Shown: positions 1 to 36,698 of the stretch, one piece after another
Layout: every line of letters begins with the position of its first letter
How positions within the stretch are numbered: the stretch's first letter is position 1
The notes under the pieces: model-generated
The model's database searches: none
The model's input: the letters and a program-made list of their open reading frames with translations, nothing else
Told to the model about the DNA's origin: nothing
Position numbers and translations under genes: made by a program
NCBI GenBank assembly: GCA_036268015.1
Contig: DATAUX010000224.1
Span: forward strand, 1 to 43,114
Source: Solirubrobacteraceae bacterium
GTDB lineage: Bacteria; Actinomycetota; Thermoleophilia; Solirubrobacterales; Solirubrobacteraceae
DNA length: 43,114 nt
Reading direction: 5' to 3'

Positions 1-817
1 GATCGAGCGGGGGGCCCGGCTGCGGGTGATCGACATCCTCGACGCGGCCGATGTCAACGGCGTCTTCGACGCGGATCGCCCGGACGTCGTCTTCCACATG
101 GCGGCGCAGATCGACGTGCGCAAGTCGCTCTCGCGGCCGGCCTGGGATGCGGAGATCAACGTCCAGGGGACGATCAACGTGCTCGAGGCCGCCCGGCGGA
201 GCTCGCTCGGCCGGCTGGTGAACACGTCGACGGGTGGGGCGATCTACGGCGACGCGGACGTGATTCCGACGCCGGAGACGGCGCAGACGCGCCCGGAGGC
301 GGCCTACGGGCAGAGCAAGCTCTCAGCCGAGGGGTACTGCGGTCTGTACGAGCGGCTCTACGGTCTCTCGGTCGTCACGCTGCGCTATGGCAACGTCTAC
401 GGCCCGCGGCAGGATCCGCTGGGCGAGGCCGGTGTCGTCGCGATGTTCTGCGGCCGGCTGATGCAGGCGGCCCGGCCGACCGTCTACGGCGACGGGATGC
501 AGACCCGGGACTACGTGTATGTCGGCGATGTCGTCGAGGCCAATCTGGCGGCCGCCGCCCGCGACGAGGTTCGCGGGGCGGTCAACATCGGGACGGGCCG
601 GGAGAGCACGGTCCTCGACCTGGTCGCCGCGATGGGCCCGCTGGCCGGGGCCGGCGACTTCACGCCGGAGTTCGCGCCGGCCCGGCTCGGTGAGCTCGAC
701 CGCAGCTGCCTGGACGTGAGCCGGGCGGCCGAGCTGCTCGGGTGGAGCGCGTCGACCGAGCTGCTCGACGGGCTGCGCCGGACGATGGAGGCGACGCTCC
801 CGGCCCCAGGCCCGTGA
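1..817 (+). CDS. NAD-dependent epimerase/dehydratase (UDP-glucose 4-epimerase-like extended SDR), 5' end cut by window edge
   Basis: ORF 26..817 stays open in the same frame back to base 2. SDR hallmarks are present: VFHMAAQ, catalytic YGQSK (YxxxK) and RYGNVYGPRQ. Stop TGA 815-817 overlaps the GTG of the next gene. Confidence 0.85.
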   Translation, partial: IERGARLRVIDILDAADVNGVFDADRPDVVFHMAAQIDVRKSLSRPAWDAEINVQGTINVLEAARRSSLGRLVNTSTGGAIYGDADVIPTPETAQTRPEAAYGQSKLSAEGYCGLYERLYGLSVVTLRYGNVYGPRQDPLGEAGVVAMFCGRLMQAARPTVYGDGMQTRDYVYVGDVVEANLAAAARDEVRGAVNIGTGRESTVLDLVAAMGPLAGAGDFTPEFAPARLGELDRSCLDVSRAAELLGWSASTELLDGLRRTMEATLPAPGP

Positions 818-1776
818 CCTCGGCCGGCCGGCGGGCGCTGATCACCGGCATCTCCGGCCAGGACGGGTCGTATCTCGCCGAGCAGCTCGTCGAGGCGGGG
901 TACGCCGTCCACGGGATCGTCCGGCCGACCAGCTCGCTCGCCAATCTCGCGGGGATCCGCGACCGGATCACGCTCCACGAGGGCGAGTTCCGGGACCCGG
1001 CGTCGTTCCGCCGGGCGCTCGAGCGCAGCGCGCCCGACGAGGTCTACCACCTGGCGGCGCCGACGTTCGTCCCCGACAGCTGGCTCGACCCGGCCGGAAC
1101 GCTCGAGGCGATCGCGGTCGCCAGCGCGGATCTCCTGACCGCCGTGCGCGAGGACTCGCCCGGCGCGCGCGTTGTCGTCGCGAGCTCGCGCGAGATCTTC
1201 GGCAACCCGCGGTCGACGCCCCAGGACGAGTCGACCCCGTGCGAGCCGTCGTCGCCGTACGGGGTCGCCAAGCTCGCCGTCCACCAACTCGTCGGGCTGC
1301 TCCGCGACCGCCACGAGATGCACGCGTCGTCGGCGATCCTCTTCAACCACGAGTCGGTCCGCCGGCCGGCGCAGTTCGTCACGCGGAAGGTCACGCGGGC
1401 GGCCGCGGCGATCAGCCTCGGCCTCGAGGACGAGCTCGTGCTCGGCGATCTGGACGCCGTCCGCGACTGGTCGGCCGCGATCGACGTGATGGCCGGCCTG
1501 CGACTGATCGCCGGGCGCGACGAGCCGGGCGACTTCGTCCTCGCGAGCGGGGTCGGCCATTCGGTCGGGGATCTCGTCCGGGCGGCGTTCGCGTACGTCG
1601 ACCTCGACCCGGCTGTCCACCTGCGGCTCGACGACGCCCTGCGCCGGGCGCCGGAACCCGTCGATCCGGTCGGCGACCCGACCCGGGCGCGCGAGCTGCT
1701 CGGCTGGCGGGCGGTGATCAGCTTCGAGCAGCTGATCGGCGAGATGGTTCGCGCGGACCTCGACCTGCTCGCCTGA
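814..1776 (+). CDS. GDP-mannose 4,6-dehydratase family protein (divergent paralogue)
   Basis: Within ORF 742..1776. GTG at 814 forms a GTGA overlap with the upstream stop. Family motifs: [24 protein letters not shown] (YxxxK), ILFNHES-RRP-FVTRKV. It encodes 320 aa, the same length as the canonical copy at 5483..6445. Confidence 0.75.
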   Translation: MTSAGRRALITGISGQDGSYLAEQLVEAGYAVHGIVRPTSSLANLAGIRDRITLHEGEFRDPASFRRALERSAPDEVYHLAAPTFVPDSWLDPAGTLEAIAVASADLLTAVREDSPGARVVVASSREIFGNPRSTPQDESTPCEPSSPYGVAKLAVHQLVGLLRDRHEMHASSAILFNHESVRRPAQFVTRKVTRAAAAISLGLEDELVLGDLDAVRDWSAAIDVMAGLRLIAGRDEPGDFVLASGVGHSVGDLVRAAFAYVDLDPAVHLRLDDALRRAPEPVDPVGDPTRARELLGWRAVISFEQLIGEMVRADLDLLA

Positions 1777-1781
1777 CCGGC

Positions 1782-3329
1782 GTGGACCGGTACGACCGGC
1801 GGGAGTTCGTCGTCCGGGCCGGGGCCGCCGGCCTGGCGCTCGGGCTCGGCGCGTGCGGGGCGACCGGCGACCCTCCGGCGGCCGCCGGGCCGCCGGCCTC
1901 CGGGAAGGTCCGGCGGGCGAGCGGTGGCGCGTCGCTCGGCGACCTTCGCGCGGCCGTTCGCGGTCGGGTCGTCACGGCCGGGTCGGCCGGCTATGCCGGG
2001 GCGAAGCAGACCTACAACGAGGCCTACGACGGCGACCGGCCGATCGCGGTCGTCGCCCCGCTCGACGAGGCCGACGTCCGGGCGGCGCTGGTCTGGGCCG
2101 GTCGCCGGGACGTGGCGGTCCGGCCGCGGGCCGGCGGCCACAGCTACGCGGGCTACTCGACGGGGGACGGCGCCCTCGTGATCGACCTGCGCCGGCTCGA
2201 CGGCGTCGGCTTCGACCGGTCGTCCGGCGTCGCGTCGATCGGCCCGGGCGCCCAGCTGATCGACGTCTACAGTGGCCTCGCGACGCACGGCGTGACGGTT
2301 CCGGCGGGGTCGTGTCCGTCGGTCGGGATCGGCGGCCACGCGCTCGGCGGCGGGATCGGCCTGGCCGGGCGGGCGCTCGGCCTGACCACCGACAACATCC
2401 TCGGGGCGCGGGTGATCACGGCCGACGGCAGGCTCCGGCAGGCGGGGACCGGCCCGGGGCAGGATGCCGATCTGCTGTGGGCGCTGCGGGGGGCCGGGGC
2501 GGGGAACTTCGGCATCGTGACCCGGCTGCGGATGCGGACCCACCGGGTCGGTCCGACCGCCTGGTTCTCGGTCTCTTGGCCGTGGTCGTCGGCCGGCGCG
2601 GCGCTGGCCGCGTGGCAGCGGCTGGTGCCCGGGGCGCCGGACGCCCTGACGTCGGTCTTCCACCTTTCGACCGGGGCCGGCGGGCCGCTCGTCAGCGCGA
2701 GCGGTCAGTACTTCGGGTCGACGGGGCGGCTGGCCGGCCTGCTGCGGCCGTTGACCGGCGTCGGCGGCGCGCGACTGTCGACCGGGACCGACACCTACCT
2801 CGACCTGATGCGGCGGTGGGCCGGCTGCCTGGAGATCGGTCTCGCGAGCTGCCGGACCGAGCCGGCCGGCGTCCTCCCGCGGGCCCGGTTCGCGGCGAAG
2901 TCCGACTTCGTGGCGCGGGACCTGCCGGCCCGCGGGCGGGATCTTCTGATCCGGGCGGTCGAGCGGGCGTCGACCGACCGGTCGCTGTCGAGCGCGGCGA
3001 TCCTGCTCGACTCGTACGGCGGCGCGATCAACCGGATCGGGCCGGCGGCGACGGCCTTCGTCCACCGGCGGGCCCGGTTCGGGGTCCAGTACCTGACGTA
3101 CTACCCGTCGGCCGCCGAACTCGGCGGGGCCCGGGCGTGGCTGGCCGGTGCGTGGAAGCCGCTGCGGCCGTACGTGTCGGGCGAGGCCTACCAGAACTAC
3201 ATCGATCCGGAGCTGGCCGGGTGGGAGCGGGCGTACTACGGGAGCAACTATCCGCGCCTGCAGAGCGCGAAGGCGACCTACGACCCGGATCGCCGGTTCC
3301 ACTTCGCCCAGTCGATCCGGCCGGCCTGA
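1782..3329 (+). CDS. Tat-exported lipoprotein FAD-linked oxidase with berberine-bridge-enzyme-like C-terminus
   Basis: Inside ORF 1239..3329, with GTG at 1782 six nt after the upstream stop. The N-terminus VDRYDRREFVVRAGAAGLALGLGACG carries a twin-arginine motif plus an LGAC lipobox. PCMH-type FAD-binding motifs are RAGGHSYAGYS and GSCPSVGIGGHALGGG. The C-terminal BBE-like motif is YQNYIDPEL...YYGSNYPRL. Confidence 0.8.
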   Translation: MDRYDRREFVVRAGAAGLALGLGACGATGDPPAAAGPPASGKVRRASGGASLGDLRAAVRGRVVTAGSAGYAGAKQTYNEAYDGDRPIAVVAPLDEADVRAALVWAGRRDVAVRPRAGGHSYAGYSTGDGALVIDLRRLDGVGFDRSSGVASIGPGAQLIDVYSGLATHGVTVPAGSCPSVGIGGHALGGGIGLAGRALGLTTDNILGARVITADGRLRQAGTGPGQDADLLWALRGAGAGNFGIVTRLRMRTHRVGPTAWFSVSWPWSSAGAALAAWQRLVPGAPDALTSVFHLSTGAGGPLVSASGQYFGSTGRLAGLLRPLTGVGGARLSTGTDTYLDLMRRWAGCLEIGLASCRTEPAGVLPRARFAAKSDFVARDLPARGRDLLIRAVERASTDRSLSSAAILLDSYGGAINRIGPAATAFVHRRARFGVQYLTYYPSAAELGGARAWLAGAWKPLRPYVSGEAYQNYIDPELAGWERAYYGSNYPRLQSAKATYDPDRRFHFAQSIRPA

Positions 3330-10083: not shown

Positions 10084-10905
10084 TCAGTGTCCGGCTGCCA
10101 GCTGACTTCGATGGGCCGCGTACTGCCGGGCGAACCCGACCACGAAACGCGGGTTGTAGCGGGCGTACCGACGCCACAGCCGGCGCGGCTCGTGCATCAG
10201 CCGGTAGGTCCATTCGAGTCCGAGGCTCTGCATCCATGACGGCGCCTGGGGCACCAGGCCGGCGTGGAAGTCGAAGGCCGCGCCGACGCCGATCAGCATC
10301 GGCACGTCGAGCCGCTCGCGCAGCCGTCCCATCCAGATCTCCTGCTTCGGCTGGCCGGTCCCGACCCAGACGACGTCGGCGCCCGACGCGTTGATCTGCT
10401 CGACGATCCAGTCGTCCTCGCTCTGCGTCGGCGGCGTGAACGGCGGCGCGTAGCCGCCGACGATGCGCACGCCGGGAAACCGCTCGCGCAGGTTGCGGGC
10501 CAGCGCCATCAGGGCGCCCTGGTTGCGACCGCCGTACAGGTACATCCGCAGGCCGGACGTCGCCGCCCGCTCGCAGTACCGGGCCATCAGCTCGGGTCCG
10601 TAGACGCGCGACGTGCCCGTGCTGTGGCCGAGCGCGTGCAGCGCCCAGACCAGGGGCTGCCCATCCGGGACGGCGAGCGTGGCTCCGAGCACGGCGTCGC
10701 GGGTCGCCTGGTCCTCCTGGGCGACCATCACGAGGTGGACCGCCGCAGCCGTGAGGTAGCCCCGCGATCTGCTGGCGACCATCGCGTCCATCCAGTCCAT
10801 CGTGGCCTCGTAGTCCGACAGGGCCAGCGGGACGCCGAGCACATCGGCCTGCGGGAGCGGCAGCGGCGTCGGCACTACCTGTTGCGTTGGTGTAGGGCTG
10901 GTCAT
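10084..10905 (-). CDS. WecB/TagA/CpsF-family glycosyltransferase (N-acetylmannosaminyl(uronosyl)transferase-like)
   Basis: ORF 10084..10905. Family motifs: VPDGQPLVWA, MYLYGG, FPGVRIVGGYAPPF, ADVVWVGTGQPKQEIW, IGVGAAFDFHAG, EWTYRL..EPRRLWRRY. Confidence 0.9.
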   Translation of the reverse strand: MTSPTPTQQVVPTPLPLPQADVLGVPLALSDYEATMDWMDAMVASRSRGYLTAAAVHLVMVAQEDQATRDAVLGATLAVPDGQPLVWALHALGHSTGTSRVYGPELMARYCERAATSGLRMYLYGGRNQGALMALARNLRERFPGVRIVGGYAPPFTPPTQSEDDWIVEQINASGADVVWVGTGQPKQEIWMGRLRERLDVPMLIGVGAAFDFHAGLVPQAPSWMQSLGLEWTYRLMHEPRRLWRRYARYNPRFVVGFARQYAAHRSQLAAGH

Positions 10906-11036
10906 TGCCGGGCCTACCCCCTAAATGTAGGGTTGGTCATTTACCGTACCTACCCCATAAACGCAGTTTCGCACGAAAGGTTGTGCACTTGCTCGGAGGA
11001 GTCGACGATCCGTCGGACTACACTGGTCGGCGAGCG

Positions 11037-12284
11037 ATGCGGGTGGGCATTATCGGACTCGGCTACGTCGGGCTGCCCCTCGCGGTCGCGTTCGCCCGTG
11101 CCGGGACCGAGGTCGTCGCCGTCGACATCGATCCGCGGAAGATCGAGGCGATCAGGGCGGGACGGTCCTACATCGAGGACGTCGACTCCGACGAGCTGGC
11201 CGGCCTGCGCGACCTGATCGACCCGACCACGCACTACGACGGCCTCGCCCGGACCGACGCGATCCTGATCTGCGTGCCGACGCCGCTGACCGGCAACCGG
11301 GAGCCCGACCTGACGCCGCTGCTGGACGCGGCGACAGGTCTGGCCGGGGTCGTCCGCCGGGGTCAGCTCGTCGTGCTCGAGTCGACGACCTACCCGGGGA
11401 CGACCCGCGGGCGGCTCGTCCCGCTGCTCGAGGAGTCGGGCCTCGCCGCGGGTCGGGACTTCCACCTCGCGTTCTCGCCCGAACGGGTCGATCCCGGCCG
11501 GACGGACTACACGCTGCGGTCGACGCCGAAGGTCGTCGGCGGGCTGACCGAGGCGTGCGGCGACCGGGCCGAGGAGGTCTACGGGATCGTCTGCGACCAG
11601 ATCGTCCGCGTCTCGACGCCCGAGGCGGCCGAGCTGGCCAAGCTGCTCGAGAACATCTTCCGGTCGGTCAACATCGCCCTCGTCAACGAGCTGGCGATGC
11701 TCACCGACAGGATGGGGATCGACATCTGGGAGGTGATCGACGCGGCCGCGACCAAGCCGTACGGGTTCATGCGTTTCGAGCCCGGCCCGGGCATGGGCGG
11801 CCACTGCCTGCCGGTCGACCCGTTCTACCTGTCGTGGCGGGCCCGCGAGTTCGACATGTCGACCGAGTTCATCGAGCTGGCCGGGAAGATCAACCAGCAG
11901 ATGCCCTACCACTGCGTCAGCAAGGTCGAGCGGGCGCTCAACGACTACGGGAAGGCCGTCCGCGGGTCGAAGATCGCCGTGCTCGGCGTCAGCTACAAGC
12001 CCGGCGTCGCCGACGTCCGCGAGTCGCCCGCGCTGAAGATCATCGCCCTGCTCGGCGGTCTGGGCGCCGACCTCGCCTACCACGATCGGTTCGTCCCCGA
12101 CCTGCCGGACTACGGCCTTCGGTCGGTGCCGATCGACGACGCGCTCGCCGGCGCCGACCTCGCGCTGATAGTCACCGCCCACGCCGGACTCGACTACGCC
12201 GGCCTGGCCGACCTCGTGCCGTGTGTGATCGACCTTCGCGGGGCGACCCGGTCGCGGAACGCCGCCAACCTCCTGCGGCTCTGA
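11037..12284 (+). CDS. UDP-N-acetyl-D-hexosamine 6-dehydrogenase (WbpA/WecC-like nucleotide-sugar dehydrogenase)
   Basis: ATG at 11037 inside ORF 10905..12284. Begins MRVGIIGLGYVGLPLAVAFA. Motifs PGPGMGGHCLPVDP (catalytic Cys) and LGVSYKPGVADVRESPA. Confidence 0.9.
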   Translation: MRVGIIGLGYVGLPLAVAFARAGTEVVAVDIDPRKIEAIRAGRSYIEDVDSDELAGLRDLIDPTTHYDGLARTDAILICVPTPLTGNREPDLTPLLDAATGLAGVVRRGQLVVLESTTYPGTTRGRLVPLLEESGLAAGRDFHLAFSPERVDPGRTDYTLRSTPKVVGGLTEACGDRAEEVYGIVCDQIVRVSTPEAAELAKLLENIFRSVNIALVNELAMLTDRMGIDIWEVIDAAATKPYGFMRFEPGPGMGGHCLPVDPFYLSWRAREFDMSTEFIELAGKINQQMPYHCVSKVERALNDYGKAVRGSKIAVLGVSYKPGVADVRESPALKIIALLGGLGADLAYHDRFVPDLPDYGLRSVPIDDALAGADLALIVTAHAGLDYAGLADLVPCVIDLRGATRSRNAANLLRL

Positions 12285-12314
12285 GCTCGTGAGCCGATCA
12301 GGCGAGGCCTGCGC

Positions 12315-13325
12315 GTGAGCCGGCCGGTGACGGTCGCCGTGGTCGGCCTCGGCTACTGGGGTCCGAACCTCGCCCGGAACTTCGACGCCCTGCCGGGCTG
12401 CGAGCTGCGCTGGTGCTGCGACGGCGACCCGGCGGTCCGCGAGCGCCTGGCCCAGACGTTCGGCGGCGCGCGCTTCACCGACTCGCTCGACGCGGTCCTC
12501 GCCGACCCCGAGCTCGACGCCGTCGTCCTCGCGACACCGGTTCCCAGCCACGCCGACCTGGCGCTCCGCGTGCTGGAGGCGGGCAAGCACTGCTTCGTCG
12601 AGAAGCCGCTGGCCAGGTCGGCCGAGGATGCCCAACGTGTCGTCGACGCGGCGGCCGCGGCCGACCGGGTCGTGATGGTCGGACACCTGCTCGAATATCA
12701 CCCGGGCGTCCGCAAGCTCAAGGACGTCGTCGAGTCGGGCGAGCTCGGCGAGATCCACTACGTCTACTCCAACCGGCTCAACCTCGGCCAGCTGCGGGCC
12801 GACGAGAACGCCCTCTGGAGTCTCGGCGCCCACGACGTCTCCGTCCTCCTGATGCTCGCCGGCGAGGAGCCGTACGAGGTCACCGCCCGCGGCGAGTCGT
12901 ACATGCGCAACGGCATCGAGGACGTCGTCTTCGGCTTCCTGCGCTTCCCGTCCGGCCTGGCGGCCCATCTCCATCTGAGCTGGCTCGATCCCCACAAGGA
13001 GCGGCGGTTCACGGTCGTCGGATCGAAGCGGATGGCGACCTTCGACGACATGGCGCTCGAGCGGAAGCTGACGATCTACGACAAGGGCTTCGACGAGGCG
13101 GCCGACAGCTACGGCGAGTACATCACCCGGTCGGGCGAGGCGACCAGCCCGCAGATCGCGAACGCCGAGCCGCTGCGCCTGGAGTGTCAGCACTTCGTCG
13201 AGTGCGTCCGCGACGGGACGGTCCCGACCTCGGACGGCCGCAGCGGCCTGCGGGTCGTCCGCGTGCTCGAAGACCTCCAGGACGCGCTCGAGCGATCGCG
13301 TCGAAGTCCGGCCGGATCGCGATGA
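12315..13325 (+). CDS. Gfo/Idh/MocA-family oxidoreductase (WbpB-like UDP-GlcNAcA 3-dehydrogenase)
   Basis: ORF 12315..13325. Motifs VAVVGLGYWGPNLARNF and HCFVEKPLA. Lies between the WbpA-like and WbpD-like genes. Confidence 0.85.
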   Translation: MSRPVTVAVVGLGYWGPNLARNFDALPGCELRWCCDGDPAVRERLAQTFGGARFTDSLDAVLADPELDAVVLATPVPSHADLALRVLEAGKHCFVEKPLARSAEDAQRVVDAAAAADRVVMVGHLLEYHPGVRKLKDVVESGELGEIHYVYSNRLNLGQLRADENALWSLGAHDVSVLLMLAGEEPYEVTARGESYMRNGIEDVVFGFLRFPSGLAAHLHLSWLDPHKERRFTVVGSKRMATFDDMALERKLTIYDKGFDEAADSYGEYITRSGEATSPQIANAEPLRLECQHFVECVRDGTVPTSDGRSGLRVVRVLEDLQDALERSRRSPAGSR

Positions 13326-14035
13326 CCCTGCGCGCCGACGATCGCGGGCCTGGCCTCCACGTCGGCGAGGATGTCGAGATCGCCGGGGATGTCGTCTTCG
13401 GGGCGCATGTCACCGTCCACGACGGGACGCGGATCGGGCCGGGTTGCGTGATCGAGGATGGCGTCGTGCTCGGCAAGCGGCCCCGCCTGGCCCGGCACTC
13501 GGCGGGCCGCGGGCGGCCGCTGGCGGGCGTCGAGCTCGGCGCGCGGGTGACCGTGTGCAGCGGGGCCGTCGTCTTCGCCGGCGGGGTGATCGCAGACGAG
13601 GCGATCGTCGGCGACCAGTCGTTCGTCCGCGAGCGGACCCGGGTCGGCCGGGCGAGCGTCGTCGGCCGGGGGAGCGTGCTCGACAACGACGTCGTCGTCG
13701 GCGATCGGGTGCGGATCCAGACGAACGTGTACATCACGGCCTGGTCGGTCGTCGAGGACGATGTCTTCGTCGGGCCGGGGGCGTCGACGACGAACGACGA
13801 CACGATGTCCCGTCACGGACCGGACTACGCCCTCCGGGGGGCGACGCTGCGCCGGGCGTGTCGAGTCGGCGGGGCCGCCGTGCTGGTCCCGGGTGTCGAG
13901 ATCGGCGAGGAGGCGTTCGTCGCGGCGGGGGCGGTCGTCACCCGCGACGTCCCGGCCCGGGCGGTCGTGATGGGTGTCCCGGCGCGGGTCGTCCGCCGGG
14001 TCTCCGACGCCGACCTGCTCGAGCGGTGGCGCTGA
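13322..14035 (+). CDS. left-handed beta-helix (hexapeptide) N-acetyltransferase, WbpD-like
   Basis: ATG at 13322 overlaps the upstream stop (ATGA). Hexapeptide repeats [LIV]-G-x4 run throughout, for example IGPGCVIEDGVVLG, VGRASVVGRGSVLDNDVVVGDRVRIQ. Confidence 0.85.
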   Translation: MTLRADDRGPGLHVGEDVEIAGDVVFGAHVTVHDGTRIGPGCVIEDGVVLGKRPRLARHSAGRGRPLAGVELGARVTVCSGAVVFAGGVIADEAIVGDQSFVRERTRVGRASVVGRGSVLDNDVVVGDRVRIQTNVYITAWSVVEDDVFVGPGASTTNDDTMSRHGPDYALRGATLRRACRVGGAAVLVPGVEIGEEAFVAAGAVVTRDVPARAVVMGVPARVVRRVSDADLLERWR

Positions 14036-26582: not shown

Positions 26583-28850
26583 TCAGGCCGGGACTGGGGT
26601 GGCGGCGCGGTCGGACTCGCGGTCGAGCACCGCGACCAGCGCTTCGACGGCCTGCGCGTCGAACTGACTCCCCGCGCAGCGCACCAGCTCGGCGCGAGCC
26701 GACGCTGGTCCGATCGACGGCCGGTACGCCCGGTCGCTCGTCATCGCCTCGTAGGCGTCGGCTACCGCGAGGATGCGGGCCTCGAGTGCGACCCCACGCC
26801 CCGCGAGTCCGCCGGGATAGCCCCGGCCGTCGGGCCGCTCGTGGTGGGCGGCCACCCATGGCCGGATGTCTGCGAGGCAGGGGTGCTCGAGGATCTGCGA
26901 GCCGAGCGCCGGATGCGTCCGGATCGTCGCGAGCTCGTCAGGACCAAGCGCTCCCGGCTTGTTGAGGATCGCGTCGGGCACGCCGACCTTGCCGATGTCG
27001 TGGAGCAGGCCGGCCAGCCTGACCCGGCCGATCCGATGCTCGGAGAGACCGAGCTCGCGGGCCATCATCTCCGCGTACCGGCCGACCGTCTCCGAATGCC
27101 GGGCGCTCCCGCTGAAGCGGAGGTCGACGGCTCCGGCCAGGTCGAGCATGACCGCTGTGAACCGCTCGCCCTCGACGTCACGGCCGCGCCCGCCGAAGTC
27201 CGCGTGGTCGGGCGTATCCCGGCTGAACGCGACACTCCGGTTGCGACCGCTCTGCTTGGCTGCGTAGAGGGCGTCGTCGGCCGCGTGGATGAGCGACGCG
27301 GCGGTCTCGCCGTGGCCGGGGAAGGCCGCCAGGCCGAAGCTGATCGTGATCGGCACGGCATCGCCGGCGAACTCGTCGAGCACGGCCCGCCGCAGTCGCT
27401 CGGCCACGACGAGGCCGCCGGCCTGGTCGGTGTCCGGAAGGATCAGGGCGAACTCCTCGCCGCCGACCCGGGCGACGGTGTCGATCTTTCTCCGGGACGA
27501 TTCGAGGACGTCGGTGATCCGCTGGAGCACGATGTCGCCGATCTGATGACCCGACCGGTCGTTGACCGTCTTGAAGTGATCGATGTCGGCCGCGACGAGC
27601 GTGATCTCCTGCCGGCTGCGCCGGGCCCGCTCGAGTTCGAGGTCGAGCAGCTCGCGGAACCCCCGCCGGTTGAGCAGCTTCGTCAGCGGATCGGTACGCG
27701 CCGCGTCGTAGAGGCGGCCGATCAGCAGCTCGACGTGCGCGCGCATCGTCCAGATCAGGGCGGCCGTGACGAGCAGCGTGCCCATCGTCACGACCCACCA
27801 GCTCGCCGCACCGGACGGCGGCGCGACGATCAAGAGGACGCCATAGGCGACGCCGACGTAGGCGATCTGGGCGGCCGTCTGTCGCTTGGTGAGGAAGTAC
27901 GACGAGTAGAGGAAGATCCAGACATAGAAGAAGATCAGCGGGCTCGGCCGCTCGGCCGAGAAGTAGGCGACGCCCGTGATCAGCGTGGTCCCCCAGGTCA
28001 GGGCCACCGGCAGCAGCCAGGTCGGCACGCTTCGCGCCCGCCGGACGAGGACGGCGGAGACGACGTACGCATTGGCGACGATGATCAGCAGGCCGAGCGC
28101 GTTCGGCCGGATCGCGTGCGGAAGCAGCAGCGTGAGCAGCGCGAGGCTGCCGCCGGCCAGGTACAGCCCGCCGAGGGCCTTTGCCATCAGCGCAACGCCG
28201 AAGCTCGAGTCGCCCCGGGTCAGGTGCCCGCTGGAGCGCTCTGGCGGGCAATCGCCGGCCATCCAGGCCGGCCGCTCGGCCGAGGCTCCCGGGAGGACGC
28301 TTGCGTGCCGGCCGCAGACCGCCGTGAAGGCGGGCCTGCAGCCGGTCTCGAAGCCGCTCGCCGGGTACGCACACAGAAGCGAGAAGGACCTATCGCGGCC
28401 GAGCTCGTTCCAGAGGTCTTCGAGCTCGAGCGTCGCCGAGACGTCGCCGTCGTCCCAGAGCAGGGCGACCATCTCGCCGTAGATCCGCACCGATCGTCCG
28501 CCGGCGGCCGCCCTGTCGATCACGCCGCCGATCCGCTCGCGGAAGCGGACGGGGTCGGGCGAACCGTCGACGATCAACGTGTCGAGCAGCTCGGACGCGT
28601 CGAGCGCCAGATACCGCCCGTCGGCGGTCGCCCCGTCCAGATCGATCCCCGCGGCCCGGAGCACGGCGGCGAAGGCGGCTCGGTGCTCGGCCGTCGCGAC
28701 GACGATCGCCGCGTCGTCTGAGCGGAGCGCCGGCCCGATGAAGGAGCCGACCGTCGCGGCCAGGTCGGCGTCGGTCTCGTAGAACTCGACGACGTGCTCG
28801 TGGCGGCGTCCCGCGCCCGAGCCGGCGCGCGAAGCCAGTGGTGACCGCAT
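26583..28850 (-). CDS. MEDS sensor domain - 6 TM - GGDEF diguanylate cyclase - HD-GYP phosphodiesterase
   Basis: Inside ORF 26583..29030; ATG at 28850 (alternatives 28868, 28880). MEDS: HVVEFYETDADL...IYGEMVALLW...LLCAYP. GGDEF: RKID I-site 5 aa before GGEEF. HD-GYP: LLHDIGK and HHERPDGRGYPGG. Confidence 0.9.
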   Translation of the reverse strand: MRSPLASRAGSGAGRRHEHVVEFYETDADLAATVGSFIGPALRSDDAAIVVATAEHRAAFAAVLRAAGIDLDGATADGRYLALDASELLDTLIVDGSPDPVRFRERIGGVIDRAAAGGRSVRIYGEMVALLWDDGDVSATLELEDLWNELGRDRSFSLLCAYPASGFETGCRPAFTAVCGRHASVLPGASAERPAWMAGDCPPERSSGHLTRGDSSFGVALMAKALGGLYLAGGSLALLTLLLPHAIRPNALGLLIIVANAYVVSAVLVRRARSVPTWLLPVALTWGTTLITGVAYFSAERPSPLIFFYVWIFLYSSYFLTKRQTAAQIAYVGVAYGVLLIVAPPSGAASWWVVTMGTLLVTAALIWTMRAHVELLIGRLYDAARTDPLTKLLNRRGFRELLDLELERARRSRQEITLVAADIDHFKTVNDRSGHQIGDIVLQRITDVLESSRRKIDTVARVGGEEFALILPDTDQAGGLVVAERLRRAVLDEFAGDAVPITISFGLAAFPGHGETAASLIHAADDALYAAKQSGRNRSVAFSRDTPDHADFGGRGRDVEGERFTAVMLDLAGAVDLRFSGSARHSETVGRYAEMMARELGLSEHRIGRVRLAGLLHDIGKVGVPDAILNKPGALGPDELATIRTHPALGSQILEHPCLADIRPWVAAHHERPDGRGYPGGLAGRGVALEARILAVADAYEAMTSDRAYRPSIGPASARAELVRCAGSQFDAQAVEALVAVLDRESDRAATPVPA

Positions 28851-29086
28851 CCGGCCCGCAGGACCCATCACCCTGGCCATCGGCCCGGCGCACGGGCGAC
28901 TTGAGATCGGCGAGCCGCCCGCCCCCGGCGCCGGCCGCCAGCGCCCGGGGCACTCCGGGTCAGCTCGAAGCCCGACCGTTCTCTGACGCGATTCCCAGGC
29001 TGCTCTCGGGGTCGCCGGCGATCCTTTCACGAGTCGCAGCGGCCACTCGATGCGATCCGCCCGACCACCAAAGGAGATCGATCAGG

Positions 29087-30669: not shown

Positions 30670-31938
30670 TCAGGCGTCGAAGGTGACGGCCATCGTCGTC
30701 GGGTACGGCCCCGTCTTGACGAGCTTCCCGGCGTCACCGGCAGCCCGGGCGACGTTCGACTGCTTGAGCACGGCCTTCGCGATCAGCGGAATCTGCAGCG
30801 CATTGGCAAAGCGCCCGAAGCAGACGTGCATGCCCGCGCCGAAGTGCAGGTAGTCGTGGGCCGGCCGCCCCGGGCGGAAGCCGTTGGGATCGTCGATCAC
30901 GGCCGGATCGAGCATCGCCGACTGCGTCGCCGCGAAGGTCACGGTCCCGGCCTTGATCAGCGACTCGTGCATCGTGCCCTCGGCGACGACGAAGTCGGTC
31001 AGCGCCCGCCGGATCAGTCCCGGCCCCTGGGGCGCCAGGCGCATCCCCTCCCAGAGGATCGCCCGGACCGTGTCGTCGTCGCCGGCGAGGGCCGCGTCGT
31101 GGGCGCTCGCGAGCGCGTCGGGATGGTCGAGGATGACGTCGAGCGCGAAGCTCGTCGCCGTCGCGATCGTCGGCACGAAGCCGGTCATCAGGCCGATCAG
31201 GTTGGCGGCGATCTGCTCGTCGGCGAACGCGGTGTCCGGGTTCGCCTGCATCGCCAGCAGACGGCCGAGGACGTCCTCGGCGGCGGTCCCCGCCGCCTTG
31301 CGCTCGGCGATCACGCCCGCGAGGTACGGCTTCCACTCGCCGACCGCGGCGAGCGCGGCCGCGTGGATCTTCGGGTCGTTCGTGACGTTGACGAAGATGT
31401 CCTCGAACATCGCGCAGGCCCACTCGATCAGCTTGTCCTCACTCGGCCCGGGCGTGCCGAACCAGTGCCCGATCAGGCGGGCCGGGACCCGCTTGGCGAG
31501 GTCGGGGATCTCGACCCGACCGTCCCGGGCAGCCGCCTCGCCGACGAGCTCGTCGGCGGCCTGGGTCACGAAGCCGACCAGGTCCGGCATGTCCGAGCGC
31601 GGGGCCGCGAGGCGGAGGATCGAGATGTCGTGCTCGTACTCCGGCGAGTCGTCGAGGCCGAGGATGAAGTCGCCGACGAGCGCCTGCATCTTCTCGTTGT
31701 ACGGGGCGACGCCGAACGACTCGTCGTTGGTCAGGACCTCGACGACGTCCGGGTAGCGGGTGACGATCGCGATGTCATGGATGTGGAGGACCGGTTTCAG
31801 CGTGCGGAGCAGGTCGAACAGCGGCTGGGGGTGGGCCGTGACCTCCGCGGTCAGCTTGGCCTTCCCCTCGGCCACGAATCGGTCGACATCGGCCCCCAGC
31901 CGGCTGCCGAAATGCTCGAGCTCGTCATCGATGCTCAC
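30670..31938 (-). CDS. cytochrome P450 (atypical I-helix)
   Basis: GTG at 31938 overlaps the DyP stop (GTGA). Heme loop HFGAGMHVCFGRF, EXXR as WEGMR, PERF-like DPNGFRPGRP. The I-helix reads GLMTGFVPTIAT. Confidence 0.9.
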   Translation of the reverse strand: MSIDDELEHFGSRLGADVDRFVAEGKAKLTAEVTAHPQPLFDLLRTLKPVLHIHDIAIVTRYPDVVEVLTNDESFGVAPYNEKMQALVGDFILGLDDSPEYEHDISILRLAAPRSDMPDLVGFVTQAADELVGEAAARDGRVEIPDLAKRVPARLIGHWFGTPGPSEDKLIEWACAMFEDIFVNVTNDPKIHAAALAAVGEWKPYLAGVIAERKAAGTAAEDVLGRLLAMQANPDTAFADEQIAANLIGLMTGFVPTIATATSFALDVILDHPDALASAHDAALAGDDDTVRAILWEGMRLAPQGPGLIRRALTDFVVAEGTMHESLIKAGTVTFAATQSAMLDPAVIDDPNGFRPGRPAHDYLHFGAGMHVCFGRFANALQIPLIAKAVLKQSNVARAAGDAGKLVKTGPYPTTMAVTFDA

Positions 31939-33302
31939 GCTGCACCACCCCCCGCTGCCGCAGCAAGGAACTGCAGGCCATTGATTCCGGGCACGAAGAA
32001 GTACTCGCCGCCCCTGACGGTGACGACCCGCTCGAGCGGTCCGACGAAGAACGGCGGGTCGCCGGGGACGATCATCTTCTTGACGGTCGCCGGGTCCTCC
32101 TGGTCCTGCGGCCCGAGCAGGACGTCCTGATCCTCGCCGAGGCCGAACGTGTTGCCCGCGCCGAGCCACTGGGACTGGACGAACTCGAACTGGCGGGCGA
32201 TGCTCGCCTGGAGCGTGATGAAGATCACGCCGCGGTCCCTGCCGTCGTCCTCGGCGCCGGCCGCCAGCGGCGGTCCGTAGGGGAGTCCGCGGCGGATCAG
32301 CCGGTGGCGGTTGACGAGCTGGCCGTCGAACGGCAGGCTGTCGCGGGGGTTCACGCGGCGGGTGTGGGCGCCGATCGGACACTTCAGCCCATTCGGGTCG
32401 TCCGCGTACCGGGACGAGTTGTTGCGCTGCTCGTCGGCCACGATCGCCGGGTCCGGCTGCTCGGGCGAGAGCTCGAGCGGCGTGCCGTCGCGCCAGCGGC
32501 CGACGACCTTGGCGGCCAGCAGCTCCTCGCCGCCGGGGTAGAGCTTCGCCGACTCGGTCAGACGACCGCGGAACTTCGCGACGTCCTGGTAGAGCTTCCG
32601 GTAGACGAGGTACGACGCGTTCGTCGTCAGCTCGGCCGCCGGCGGCGCGTCCGGCAGGACGCCCTCCTCGTCGGGGTAGCCGAGGATGAACTCGCCGGCC
32701 CGGATCGGCCGCCAGCCGCCCTCCTTGGTGACGGCGCCCTGCCCCGGCAGCATCGGTACGCCGCTGCCCTCGATCGCCGGCTGGGCGAACCCGTCGGCAT
32801 AGCCGAAGTGCTCGCGCATCGTCGGCAGCAGGGCGCCGACGTCCTCGTAGACGACGGTCAGGCCGCCGCTCGCGGCGATCCCCGCGCGCAGCCGCTTGTC
32901 GTGGGCCTCGAGCGCGGCCTCGTGCTTCGCGCTGATCATCACGAAGACGTGGATCTCGTCGCCTCCGAAACCGCCCTCCCAGTGCTCGGGAGCGCTCTCG
33001 CCGGTGTCGCCGAGCAGGTCGGCCCGGGCGGCCATGCCCTGGCGAAACTCCTCGGGGAAACCGGCCATGCACGCGTCGGGCAGCTCGAGCTTCGCAAGCC
33101 CGGCGTAGCTGAAGGCGAGATTCACACCGGACTCCGGCTTGACCGACCAGGTCGCCGCCGTCTGGACCTCCTCGGTGATCGTCGAGATCCAAGCCGCCGC
33201 ACCCGCGGCGTCGTCGATCCGCAGGAACAGGTAACGCGCGATCGGAAGCGTGTAACCGCGGACGACGAAGCCCTGGATCCGCGCGAGGTCGAGGTCGGTC
33301 AC
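31935..33302 (-). CDS. Dyp-type (dye-decolorizing) heme peroxidase
   Basis: ORF 31935..33302. GXXDG motif FGYADGFAQP, proximal-His region CPIGAHTRRVNPRD, and C-terminal GVIFITLQASIARQFEFVQSQW. GTG at 33302 overlaps the upstream stop (GTGA). Confidence 0.92.
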   Translation of the reverse strand: MTDLDLARIQGFVVRGYTLPIARYLFLRIDDAAGAAAWISTITEEVQTAATWSVKPESGVNLAFSYAGLAKLELPDACMAGFPEEFRQGMAARADLLGDTGESAPEHWEGGFGGDEIHVFVMISAKHEAALEAHDKRLRAGIAASGGLTVVYEDVGALLPTMREHFGYADGFAQPAIEGSGVPMLPGQGAVTKEGGWRPIRAGEFILGYPDEEGVLPDAPPAAELTTNASYLVYRKLYQDVAKFRGRLTESAKLYPGGEELLAAKVVGRWRDGTPLELSPEQPDPAIVADEQRNNSSRYADDPNGLKCPIGAHTRRVNPRDSLPFDGQLVNRHRLIRRGLPYGPPLAAGAEDDGRDRGVIFITLQASIARQFEFVQSQWLGAGNTFGLGEDQDVLLGPQDQEDPATVKKMIVPGDPPFFVGPLERVVTVRGGEYFFVPGINGLQFLAAAAGGGAA

Positions 33303-33847
33303 GCCGGGAAGCTCCGCTCGAAGGCCGCCTTGAGCGCGGCCGGCGCCATGCCCTGGGAGTTCATCGCGAAGGCGATCACGCTGTGGCGGGCCGCCAGGCT
33401 GCTCTTGACATCCTCGACGGTCCGCTCGCCGTACGCGCCGAAGAACAGCGAGCTCTCGACGTGGTGCTTGCGCATATACGCCGCGAACGCCGCCGCGTCC
33501 CCGCTCCCCGGGTAGCCGCAGCAGTGGCTCCAGATCTCGTCCGCCGCGGCGCCGAGGCCTGTGCGCAGGGATTCGAGGTACGAGTCGAGGTCCCTGCCGT
33601 CGAAGTTGCTCGTGAAGAGCAGCTGGCCGAGCTTGAGGTGGTCGCGCTGCCCCTTGCCCTCGTAGACCACGTCGCCGAGCACCACCCAGCGGGCGAAGTG
33701 TGTCCTGGCGACCTTGGCGAGCGGGCTCGCCGGGCCGCCCTCGAGTGCGTTGAGATGCCGCGCGAGGGAGTTCTCGTGGCCCTCGCGGATCGCCGTCAAC
33801 ACGGTCAGCGAGTGAGCCTGCCCGGAGATGTCGTGACGCCCGTTCAC
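33299..33847 (-). CDS. hypothetical protein, paralogue B of the 33844..34419 product
   Basis: GTG at 33847 overlaps the upstream stop (GTGA). GC3 is high. It shares blocks with paralogue A: LTVLT, HFARWVVL, LLFTSNFDG..LDSYLE, IW..CCGYPG. Confidence 0.7.
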   Translation of the reverse strand: MNGRHDISGQAHSLTVLTAIREGHENSLARHLNALEGGPASPLAKVARTHFARWVVLGDVVYEGKGQRDHLKLGQLLFTSNFDGRDLDSYLESLRTGLGAAADEIWSHCCGYPGSGDAAAFAAYMRKHHVESSLFFGAYGERTVEDVKSSLAARHSVIAFAMNSQGMAPAALKAAFERSFPA

Positions 33848-34419
33848 AGGTCGCCCTGGACCTTCGTCAGAAACGCGACGTACGCCGCCTGGAAGGCATC
33901 GGGATCGAGGCCGGCCGAGGCCTTCCTGAAGTCGGCGAGGGCCGCCTCGACCCGCCCGGCGGAGACGATCTCCGTCGTCGTGTGTCCGGGGTAGGCGGAC
34001 CAGTAGTGGTTGGCGACGTACTCGTTGCGACGGATGTACTGCTTGAAGGGCTCGACCGGCAGCGGTCCCGGGAAGCCGAGCGACGTTCCCCAGATCGCCT
34101 TCATGCGCAGGGCGACGACCTCCGAGAAGGCGTCGATGTACTGGTCCCAGGTGCCGTTGAAGTTGCTCTCGAAGAAGAGGTACGGGTGGCTCGGGCGCTG
34201 GCCCTCCCCGTCGGTCCCATCCGGGAAGCGCTTGATCAGCGTCCACCGGGCGTAGTGGATGAACGAGAGGGTCTCGAGCTTCTTCAGCGTGAAAGACAGG
34301 TTCCGACCCGCCCAGAAGACGATCGGGAGCAGTATCGGCCCCAGGCGATTGACCGGTGTGAGCACGGTGATCGCGGTCGCCTTCCCCTCGATATTCGCCA
34401 CGGCGGCAATGTATTCCAT
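33844..34419 (-). CDS. hypothetical protein, paralogue A (first gene of the DyP/P450 operon)
   Basis: ORF 33844..34419 with an ATG start and high GC3. Blocks: ITVLT, IHYARWTLI, YLFFESNFNGTWDQYIDAF, IWGTSLGFPG. Confidence 0.7.
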   Translation of the reverse strand: MEYIAAVANIEGKATAITVLTPVNRLGPILLPIVFWAGRNLSFTLKKLETLSFIHYARWTLIKRFPDGTDGEGQRPSHPYLFFESNFNGTWDQYIDAFSEVVALRMKAIWGTSLGFPGPLPVEPFKQYIRRNEYVANHYWSAYPGHTTTEIVSAGRVEAALADFRKASAGLDPDAFQAAYVAFLTKVQGDL

Positions 34420-35403: not shown

Positions 35404-35651
35404 CCGATCTCGTCTCCACTCGTCGTCGTGGCACCGATCGGCCGGCGCCGATGGCGTCCGGCGCGACCCTTTGTTGGCGTGCTCGACGAAAGATGCCTGC
35501 AATGCCGGGGGTCGCGCGCGTTTGACGCAAAGCTTGCAACTCCTTCCGGGCCTCCTCGCCGGATCCGGACGGGACCGGCGACCGTTGCGGCGGTCCTTCC
35601 CGGCGGCATTAGGCTGTGCGCGACATCCACATCGACCCAGGGAGTGGAAGG

Positions 35652-36698
35652 GTGAACACTACGGCGCAGCAGACCGGCGGCGAGGATCTCCGAGCGGACT
35701 TCGTGTTCGAGGGCGGTGGGGTCAAGGGCATCGGCCTGTCCGGCGCTTACCGCGAGCTGAGCGACCGCGGCTACCACGCACAGTGCGTCGCCGGCACGTC
35801 GGCCGGGGCGATCAACGCCGCGCTGGTCGCCTGCGGGTTCGACGGGGCGGAGGTCGAGGACGTCGCCCTCCACCGGATGAAGTTCCCCGAGTTCGAGGAC
35901 CGGAACTTCCTCGGCCGGTTCGGCAAGCCCGGCGAGGCGGCCGAGTTCTTCAAGACGCGCGGCATGCACAGCGGCGACTACTTCCTCACCTGGATGCGGG
36001 AGCTGCTCGCCGAGAAGGGGATCACCAAGTTCGGCCAGCTGCGCGACCCCGACGCCAAGTCCCCGGCCCGCGAGTACCGCCTCCAGGTGATCGCCTCTGA
36101 TCTCAGTGCCCGCAGCATGCTCGTCCTCCCGCGCGACGCCGCGAAGATCGGCTTCGAGCCCGACGATCTCGAGATCGCCCTGGCCGTGCGGATGAGCATG
36201 TCGATCCCGGTCTTCTTCAACCCGGTCACGCCCGTCGACGCCGACGGGCAGACCCACGTGATCGTCGACGGCGGCCTGCTCTCGAACTATCCGATCTGGC
36301 TCTTCGACGCGCCCGGCGACACCCAGCCGGAGTTCCCGACCTTCGGGATGCTGCTCGTCGCACCCAACCAGAAGGCCCCGCTGGTCGCGACCGGCGCCGA
36401 CGACGCACTCGCCGACGTGACGTCGGATCTCGGCTTCCTCAAGGCGATGGAGGCGACCGTGACCCAGGCTCACGACCGCTTCTACGTCGAGCAGGCCAAC
36501 TACGCCCGGACGATCCCGATCCCGACGCTCGGCGTCAAGACGACCGAGTTCGACGTCTCGCCCGAGCGCACCCAGGCGCTCTTCGACTCCGGCCGCTCGG
36601 CCGCCGCCCAGTTCCTCGAGACCTGGGACTTCCAGGGCTACAAGGACAAGTTCCGCAGCGGCACCACGCCGACCCGCCGCGACACCGTGACGCCCTGA
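35652..36698 (+). CDS. patatin-like phospholipase
   Basis: ORF 35616..36698. GTG 35652 is preferred because GGAG lies 7 nt upstream. Oxyanion motif FEGGGVKG, nucleophile GTSAG (GxSxG), catalytic Asp in IVDGGLLSNYP. Confidence 0.9.
   Translation: MNTTAQQTGGEDLRADFVFEGGGVKGIGLSGAYRELSDRGYHAQCVAGTSAGAINAALVACGFDGAEVEDVALHRMKFPEFEDRNFLGRFGKPGEAAEFFKTRGMHSGDYFLTWMRELLAEKGITKFGQLRDPDAKSPAREYRLQVIASDLSARSMLVLPRDAAKIGFEPDDLEIALAVRMSMSIPVFFNPVTPVDADGQTHVIVDGGLLSNYPIWLFDAPGDTQPEFPTFGMLLVAPNQKAPLVATGADDALADVTSDLGFLKAMEATVTQAHDRFYVEQANYARTIPIPTLGVKTTEFDVSPERTQALFDSGRSAAAQFLETWDFQGYKDKFRSGTTPTRRDTVTP

Follow-up and report, generated by a model that had tools for sequence, protein, structure and literature searches.

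A heterotypic pair of predicted dimeric alpha+beta barrel proteins genetically linked to class C/V DyP-type peroxidases in a Solirubrobacteraceae bacterium and across bacterial phyla

Gene organization at the locus

The window analysed here is the whole 43,114-nucleotide stretch of contig DATAUX010000224.1 (positions 1 to 43,114, assembly GCA_036268015.1) of a Solirubrobacteraceae bacterium, with a GC content of ~70%. Four minus-strand open reading frames (ORFs) are packed head to tail in it: genes A and B, whose small products we assign below to the dimeric alpha+beta barrel (DABB) superfamily, a gene for a DyP-type heme peroxidase and one for a cytochrome P450 (Table 1). The strongest point to emerge is that the neighbouring DyP has a conserved partner in the A/B pair, at times a fused one. 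This point was absent from an earlier description of the same DNA made from the letters alone (the sequence-only reading), which had nevertheless placed A and B at the correct coordinates and lengths, as ORFs and translations confirm, and had recognised them as old paralogs kept as separate, translationally coupled genes, which the data below bear out.

Two overlaps of 4 nt, both reading GTGA, join A to B and B to DyP and support translational coupling of the three genes. The DyP stop codon is in turn overlapped by the proposed GTG start of the P450, owing to a C-terminal extension of the window DyP. This extension is short and Ala/Gly-rich (…LQFLAAAAGGGAA) and is not found in the closest orthologs; in loci L001-L005 a gap of ~27 nt separates DyP and P450 instead. 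The start of gene A is ambiguous between an ATG and a GTG codon. Homologs of A are mostly 183-185 aa long, and their N-terminus MAN[IV]EGK corresponds to the GTG start.

Table 1. Features of the window and of related loci. Positions without a locus name refer to the window.
Feature	Position	Strand	Basis or remark
Gene A, 191-aa A-type DABB-like subunit	33844..34419	minus	ORF and translation
Gene B, 182-aa B-type DABB-like subunit, GTG start, paralog of A	33299..33847	minus	translation
Class C/V DyP-type heme peroxidase, 455 aa	31935..33302	minus	TIGR01413, PF21105, PF20628
Cytochrome P450, 422 aa, heme loop FGAGMHVCFG	30670..31938	minus	accessory gene, frequent in the cassette; one of the co-travelling P450s
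GTGA overlap, A stop/B start	33844..33847	minus	read from the sequence; translational coupling
GTGA overlap, B stop/DyP start	33299..33302	minus	read from the sequence; translational coupling
C-terminal extension of DyP	31935-31975	minus	
Gene A, ATG start	34419	minus	gives 191 aa
Gene A, GTG start	34401	minus	gives 185 aa
Co-travelling P450, L082	8924-10252		
Co-travelling P450, L086	9407-10762		
Co-travelling P450, L099	7618-8955		
Co-travelling P450, L098	7746-9113		
~340-aa hypothetical protein beside DyP, Streptomyces plasmid (L089)	3887-4900		
~340-aa hypothetical protein beside DyP, Nostoc plasmid (L090)	6362-7390		
Patatin-domain gene, Geobacteraceae metagenome-assembled genome (L086)	10807-13641		after AB-DyP-P450
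Patatin-domain gene, L099	8998-11188		after AB-DyP-P450
Oleate hydratase, 3-hydroxyacyl-CoA dehydrogenase and acyl-CoA thioesterase genes, Sphingobium cloacae pSCLO_2 (L093)	1-2050		
Patatin-like phospholipase gene	35616-36698	plus	divergent from A, ~1.2 kb upstream
ScyD/ScyE-family protein, 322 aa	29696-30664	plus	NF033206, E 5e-79; convergent to the P450 end of the operon
815-aa ORF with GGEEF and HHERPDGRGYP motifs	26583-29030	minus	ORF list reading of the translation; resembles GGDEF and HD-GYP signalling domains

A and B as members of an unannotated family

A and B are paralogs in a new family of the DABB superfamily. They align in BLASTP over 183 columns with 26% identity (E 3e-16), and this alignment takes in all five sequence blocks that the sequence-only reading had quoted as matching. 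In reciprocal tblastn searches, each of 80 related genome loci yields its B gene to the A query and its A gene to the B query (E 1e-7 to 1e-22), and because this cross-detection recurs in each related locus the paralogy is not a product of chance. Sixteen columns are invariant over 25 A and 25 B orthologs (G12, H55, A57, R58, W59, L81, F83, S85, F87, Y94, W110, P117, G118, F125, Y128, Y143), including the motifs H-x-A-R-W in strand 2 and L-x-F-x-S-N-F-[ND]-G at the end of strand 3. Family-wide, B-type halves retain His50 (100%), Arg53 (99%), Cys109 (97%) and Asp83 (90%); A-type halves retain Phe83, Tyr94, Phe98 and Phe125 at 97-99% (Tyr94 at 99%), with their His55 and Arg58 kept at just 83-87%.

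Annotation of these proteins is lacking throughout the resources searched. Homologs numbered 897 for A, all of them named ‘hypothetical’, and 369 for B, and the source names seen for A/B relatives were ‘hypothetical’ or ‘uncharacterized’ in every case. Neither A nor B had a Pfam match above threshold, the best reaching 19 bits against a cutoff of 28; DUF5106, which scored at this level and covered the C-terminal helices only, was dismissed as an identity for A/B. ABM (PF03992), Dabb (PF07876), EthD (PF07110) and similar Pfam families matched none of A, B and 59 fused relatives at thresholds as loose as E 1-10, and a Pfam scan of these 59 at E 1 returned no recurrent family. NCBIfam gave zero matches for A, B, fused or single-copy relatives, and sequence and profile searches of PDB found no A/B match above threshold. 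The label ‘unrecognised family’ in the sequence-only reading, which had proposed a Pfam scan as a check, therefore holds after Pfam, NCBIfam and PDB sequence searches, and the new family deserves a Pfam or NCBIfam model of its own.

A profile search of 1.84 billion representatives returned 3,577 homologous clusters at E<=1e-3, of which 2,074 remain at E<=1e-10 and 442 at E<=1e-30. The 263 relatives sampled from the family were mostly tandem two-domain proteins (172) or single domains (55), followed by a mini-catalase domain before the tandem (17) or behind it (9), and a tandem fused to DyP (9); an insert in one further tandem is unexplained. No domain type other than DyP (9) and mini-catalase (26) was fused among them. 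When the halves were typed with separate A-only and B-only hidden Markov models (HMMs), 194 of 205 two-domain proteins combined one A-type with one B-type half, in A-B order in 104 and in B-A order in 90. Heterotypic composition in either order implies that the split between A and B predates the fusions and fissions and that the heterotypic pair is the conserved unit. A and B in the window are the split form of an ancient two-domain protein, widespread and unannotated. In the DyP fusions, the peroxidase part carries PF21105 and PF20628 and matches the partner-DyP profile at E 1e-100 to 1e-157. The fused mini-catalase domain, which occurs in fusions elsewhere and is not present in the window, matches by profile MAP-2744c of M. 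avium paratuberculosis (3e4w, E 7e-16) and true catalases (E 1e-12), and its distal His and its proximal Tyr in R-x-x-V-Y (H46, R331, Y335) are invariant in 10 sequences. The clusters of fusion proteins bear just the names ‘Dyp-type peroxidase family’ and ‘hypothetical protein’.

Predicted fold and relation to DyP

The A protein was modelled with AlphaFold2 (AF2) from a 50-sequence A+B alignment (pLDDT 77.4) and the fused homolog P0241 (391 aa) from a 59-sequence alignment. The secondary structure of A follows the order b1-a-a-b2-b3-a-a-a-(b4) in the core, to which two long C-terminal helices are added. P0241 was predicted to be a compact, two-domain protein (pLDDT 89.5, pTM 0.89), the halves of which show the element order of A and a clear fourth strand each; the strand 4 region is of lower confidence in the model of A alone than in that of fused P0241. 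By AF2 and Foldseek, a ferredoxin-like b-a-b-b-a-b core of ~100 residues is present in A and in both halves of P0241. As modelled, the fold class of A/B is that of the dimeric alpha+beta barrel (ferredoxin-like) superfamily.

Foldseek searches of PDB with the A model gave matches at E 1e-2 to 1e-1 (probability 0.85-1.0, target-normalised TM mostly 0.44-0.60, ~100-107 columns), comprising Dabb proteins (Passiflora hydroxynitrile lyase (PeHNL), At3g17210, SP1) and, beyond these, ABM proteins (9lmm, 4dn9, SnoaB), EthD, TcmI and MLMI. The best matches of P0241 were sulfur oxygenase reductase (SOR; E 2e-4) and WhiE-ORFI (E 1e-3, TM 0.36-0.39), with Abx(+)O (TMt 0.58) and CT0912 as further matches that have two ferredoxin-like halves per chain, and the whole P0241 chain aligned to tandem DABB proteins with low TM-scores (0.26-0.39). 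The ferredoxin-like alpha+beta fold anticipated by the sequence-only reading is hence borne out by the AF2 core and by the coherent set of DABB matches. The same reading had suggested a Foldseek search as a check on the relation that it proposed to DyP and chlorite dismutase (Cld); here the alpha+beta fold was recovered, but the nearest structures were ABM, Dabb, EthD, TcmI and tandem DABB proteins and not DyP or Cld.

Kinship with DyP was examined in several other ways. Homology of A/B to DyP was rejected since hhalign detected no similarity between the A/B profile and an alignment of 19 partner DyPs (probability 0.35%, E 0.17). No DyP structure was among the top 50 Foldseek matches of either model, and Cld and HemQ entered the P0241 list just at E 0.45-0.9 (probability 0.11-0.15). 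The Pfam families Dyp_perox, DyP_N and Chlor_dismutase did not match A/B even at E 10, and a GXXDG motif is not conserved in the alignment of 25 A and 25 B sequences. The view of A and B as single-domain kin of DyP and chlorite dismutase is not supported by these results, and the resemblance of short motifs to YfeX and to a block of the adjacent DyP amounts to a shared strand-helix topology without detectable homology. What survives of the idea that A and B together mimic the two-domain architecture of DyP is the two-domain unit itself, which is real given the heterotypic fusions and the confident P0241 model, whereas a specific kinship with DyP is not supported.

Genomic linkage of A/B to DyP

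A genome scan limited to one genome per species yielded 306 loci, of which 80 were kept and 78 had enough sequence. The order A-B-DyP on one strand, with genes abutting or overlapping, was found in 78/78 informative loci, mainly from Solirubrobacterales but also from Chloroflexota, Nitrospirota, Dormiibacterota, Thermoleophilaceae and Paraconexibacteraceae. All-against-all clustering of the neighbours, with a codon-position GC filter against spurious high-GC ORFs, identified A/B and DyP as the only universal members of these loci; P450 ranked next with 16 loci, and all other families occurred in 12 or fewer. The fused genes tell the same story. On long contigs the gene that follows a fused A/B gene is DyP in 9/9 cases (Pedobacter hartonius, Sorangium sp. 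So ce233, Cyanosarcina, Chloroflexia, Geobacteraceae, an Actinomycetales metagenome-assembled genome and three others), and DyP remains the next gene where the tandem is already fused to a mini-catalase. Altogether, co-location of A/B with DyP spans ~nine phyla. Additional genes beside the fused cassettes were P450s (Sorangium, Geobacteraceae, L099), a mini-catalase (Cyanosarcina) and two flavin monooxygenase (FMO)-like genes (Pedobacter).

A search in the opposite direction, starting from DyP, found a relative on 85 PLSDB plasmids, and nine of these, from cultured bacteria and with a class-C DyP, were inspected. An A/B-like gene lies upstream of DyP on the same strand in eight of the nine. 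Granulicella tundricola carries a split A/B pair overlapping DyP (WP_013572739/40/41; HMM E 1e-50 and 1e-42). DyP is immediately preceded by a lone A/B-like gene in Rhodococcus koreensis, Sphingobium cloacae, Brucella anthropi, Nostoc HK-01 and Gloeothece PCC 7822, and in Streptomyces NBC_01579 a ~340-aa gene stands between the single upstream A/B-like gene and DyP (HMM E 1e-8 to 1e-18 for these six). In Rhizobium T136 the A/B-like gene is ~1.7 kb upstream. The A/B match of the Streptomyces plasmid NBC_01340 was merely marginal. Genes labelled ‘catalase family protein’ that match the mini-catalase profile (E 1e-52 to 1e-54) adjoin in Rhodococcus, Sphingobium and Brucella. No Deinococcus record was among the plasmid DyP matches listed, where a close relative of the Deinococcus radiodurans enzyme DrDyP would be expected near the top.

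The ~340-aa hypothetical protein encoded beside DyP on a Streptomyces plasmid has a counterpart on a Nostoc plasmid, with 62% identity across phyla. It has no Pfam match and is not a mini-catalase. Such identity between phyla suggests horizontal transfer of a variant cassette that would include another unknown partner.

In sum, the unit of one A-type and one B-type domain shows a strict genetic link to class C/V DyP, and DyP and mini-catalase are the sole domains to which it is fused. Nothing relevant emerged when the literature was searched for reports of a DyP partner or operon. Neither the family nor its obligate heterotypic pairing nor its lock-step association with class C/V DyPs appears to have been described, while the fold class is already known.

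Partner peroxidase, P450 and lipid-related neighbours

The window DyP is a class C/V DyP. It scores 109.5 bits against TIGR01413 (cutoff 100.5) and also matches PF21105 and PF20628; Asp170 of the GXXDG motif, the proximal His313 and Arg334 are invariant in 19 orthologs, and the protein is cytoplasmic, no signal peptide being visible in its sequence. DrDyP (8re2/8re3) is its closest solved structure (E 3e-113); next come ancestral and fungal class D enzymes, AnaPX (alr1585) and Amycolatopsis DyP2, and class D/C structures match at E 1e-50 to 1e-81. DrDyP belongs to class C/V as well; its heme is six-coordinate low-spin, the enzyme shows no activity at physiological pH (pH 7.5), and in the view of its authors activity in vivo is perhaps governed by other proteins (PMC10820274). 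Its gene, DR_A0145, adjoins the catalase-like DR_A0146, a protein without catalase activity (PMC6300522).

The P450 of the window is remote from solved P450s, the best scoring just E 5e-16 (the best matches being cyclodipeptide-coupling P450s, at E ~1e-16); TIGR04538 matches at E 1e-18 but far under its cutoff. P450s encoded behind DyP in Sorangium, Geobacteraceae, L099 and L098 share 28-43% identity with it (E 1e-26 to 1e-101), the Sorangium enzyme being at 43% (8e-101), and orthologs follow DyP in at least 16 Solirubrobacterales loci. This likeness across distant phyla, set against the remoteness of the solved P450s, indicates that a dedicated P450 subfamily travels with the cassette. No ferredoxin or reductase genes were seen in the cassettes.

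Several neighbouring genes touch on lipids. Patatin-domain genes follow AB-DyP-P450 in the Geobacteraceae genome (L086) and in L099, and others lie near the trio in L001, L003, L004, L029, L031 and L062; the window itself has a patatin-like phospholipase gene divergent from A. A lipid connection is possible, but no alignment was obtained between the patatins of L086 and L099, so that the link may be convergent or coincidental. On the Sphingobium cloacae plasmid pSCLO_2, fatty-acid genes (Table 1) stand directly upstream of a cluster of TetR, mini-catalase, A/B-like and DyP genes, which hints at a fatty-acid context. On the far side of the window P450, the convergent ScyD/ScyE-family gene is conserved beside the cassette in the closest relatives only (L001-L004); the ORF with the putative signalling domains lies beyond it.

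Proposed role of the A:B pair

Which substrates DyPs act on in the cell and what roles they play has been asked for a long time, above all for the cytoplasmic class C/V enzymes, and to our knowledge DyPs have been studied almost entirely as isolated enzymes on artificial dyes. The A/B module offers a concrete, testable handle on the natural role of class C/V DyPs. Inactive DrDyP and similar oddities in vitro may reflect a missing subunit. We think it moderately probable that, as a heterodimeric DABB module, A and B are obligate partners of class C/V DyP and handle or oxygenate an organic substrate or peroxide. There are good grounds to infer that A and B heterodimerise and act together with the DyP, probably as a complex. 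With more reserve, and by analogy to enzymes of similar fold, A/B may be a non-heme, substrate-handling component, such as a cofactor-independent oxygenase, isomerase or cyclase that perhaps forms an organic hydroperoxide.

In the proposed mechanism, A and B would assemble as a heterodimer, and this module would be the functional and probably physical partner of the cytoplasmic class C/V DyP encoded directly downstream, with a dedicated P450 and/or mini-catalase peroxidase often joining the cassette. As the non-heme component, the heterodimer would bind the organic substrate of the pathway and oxygenate or rearrange it in the manner of ABM oxygenases, cyclases and decarboxylases. It could either form an organic (hydro)peroxide for the heme enzymes or process their reactive product. 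The principal site would be expected in the B-type half, with its near-invariant His, Arg, Cys and Asp.

Several observations weigh against this interpretation. Co-location and fusion are indirect evidence of a physical link between A/B and DyP. Some lineages have a single-copy A/B-like gene, and heterodimerisation would therefore not be universal. The Foldseek matches carry weak E-values (1e-2 for A, 2e-4 for the tandem), and the tandem has low TM-scores, which makes the family a remote and not a close relative of ABM proteins and SOR, so that the catalytic analogy may not transfer. Accessory genes vary between P450, FMO-like, mini-catalase and patatin genes, and hence no single substrate can be named. 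Finally, within Solirubrobacterales A and B retain the same 16 invariant residues, and these alone do not indicate a division into one active and one structural subunit.

A tentative alternative, to which we give a minor but real chance, is that A/B is not an enzyme but serves the peroxidase as a subunit that regulates or activates it or handles its heme. Docked on class C/V DyPs (and mini-catalases), it would switch an inactive six-coordinate low-spin heme to an active one, or deliver or insert the heme. All fusion partners are indeed heme proteins, of two unrelated folds, the frequent third gene encodes another heme protein (P450), and the inactivity of DrDyP, for which partner proteins were invoked, would fit. 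Several DABB families, namely IsdG/MhuD, Cld and HemQ, bind heme, and the B-type His and Cys are near-invariant. Chaperones and insertion factors, however, are rarely fused to their clients, A/B has no detectable similarity to IsdG-type or Cld-type heme binders, the conserved His, Arg, Asn, Tyr and Trp resemble ABM small-molecule sites at least as much as heme sites, and the Pedobacter neighbours are flavin monooxygenases and not extra heme enzymes.

More specific than the substrate-handling role preferred here, and in our judgement rather unlikely, is the proposal that A:B is a new cofactor-independent (or novel-metal) oxygenase which would convert an endogenous organic substrate and O2 to an organic hydroperoxide that is channelled to DyP, mini-catalase and P450. 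If this were true, class C/V DyPs would be hydroperoxide converters of a dedicated pathway and not general H2O2 peroxidases, and the inactivity of isolated enzymes such as DrDyP at neutral pH would be explained. Inactive DrDyP and similar oddities in vitro may reflect a missing subunit.

We consider it improbable that A/B has a purely structural role without catalysis, as a scaffold that would, for instance, oligomerise or localise the peroxidase and bind no ligand itself. Dimerisation and oligomerisation are classic functions of DABB domains, both A-B and B-A orders occur in fusions, and a recognisable cofactor motif is absent. Against this stands the strong retention of polar and aromatic residues (B-type His50, Arg53 and Cys109, A-type Tyr94) over ~nine phyla, which is typical of active or binding sites and not of scaffolds, and over the same range A-type and B-type halves stayed distinct. 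Least probable is the idea of the sequence-only reading that A and B are single-domain DyP/chlorite-dismutase relatives whose heterodimer is a heme-binding mimic of the two-domain DyP: the broad superfamily fold is held in common, the fused homologs back an architecture of two ferredoxin-like domains and Cld and HemQ appear low in the Foldseek list, but the profile, Pfam, structure and motif comparisons described above have largely refuted it at the level of sequence and structure searches.

Comparison with known systems

Among known proteins, the cofactor-independent ABM/DABB enzymes come closest to A/B. ActVA-Orf6 and SnoaB, and the tandem proteins WhiE-ORFI (9lmn) and Abx(+)O (9ltx), share with A/B a ferredoxin-like b-a-b-b-a-b domain and, putatively, its pairing as a dimer or tandem and a pocket that is rich in His, Arg, Asn, Tyr and Trp; such enzymes were the best or near-best Foldseek matches for the A and P0241 models. 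Unlike them, A/B has no sequence or Pfam similarity to ABM, and TM is just 0.35-0.6. Each A/B domain measures ~180 aa, its first helix is split and two further helices follow at its C-terminus, and A/B is a conserved heterotypic pair tied to heme peroxidases and not to polyketide synthase clusters. SOR (2cb2, 6qmv), the top match of the fused tandem (over 376 columns), likewise has two ferredoxin-like halves in one chain, but superposes at TM 0.26-0.32 with a root-mean-square deviation of ~13 A and is unrelated in its biology, and its 2-His-1-carboxylate iron site has no counterpart among the conserved A/B residues. The heme proteins of the DyP, chlorite dismutase and HemQ group resemble A/B in belonging to the broad alpha+beta barrel superfamily and in their two-domain architecture, and A/B is genetically tied to DyP. 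In contrast to this group, A/B lacks profile similarity, a significant structural match, and a GXXDG or proximal-His context, which makes it a partner and not a member of the DyP family.

A different kind of parallel is offered by the lipoxygenase-allene oxide synthase (LOX-AOS; mini-catalase) fusions of corals and cyanobacteria and the fungal Ppo dioxygenase-P450 (DOX-P450) fusions, in which a catalase-related or P450 heme domain transforms a hydroperoxide made by a fused or adjacent non-homologous domain. The same kind of mini-catalase, related to MAP-2744c, is fused to the A/B tandem. A/B itself is neither a lipoxygenase nor a heme dioxygenase, that it forms a peroxide is a pure hypothesis, and the universal partner of A/B is DyP and not mini-catalase. 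Should A:B prove to be a hydroperoxide maker, it would represent a bacterial, non-lipoxygenase counterpart of the LOX-AOS and DOX-P450 oxylipin-type fusions. The pairing of DrDyP with DR_A0146 in Deinococcus radiodurans is of the same DyP and mini-catalase type as seen in Cyanosarcina, Rhodococcus, Sphingobium and Brucella.

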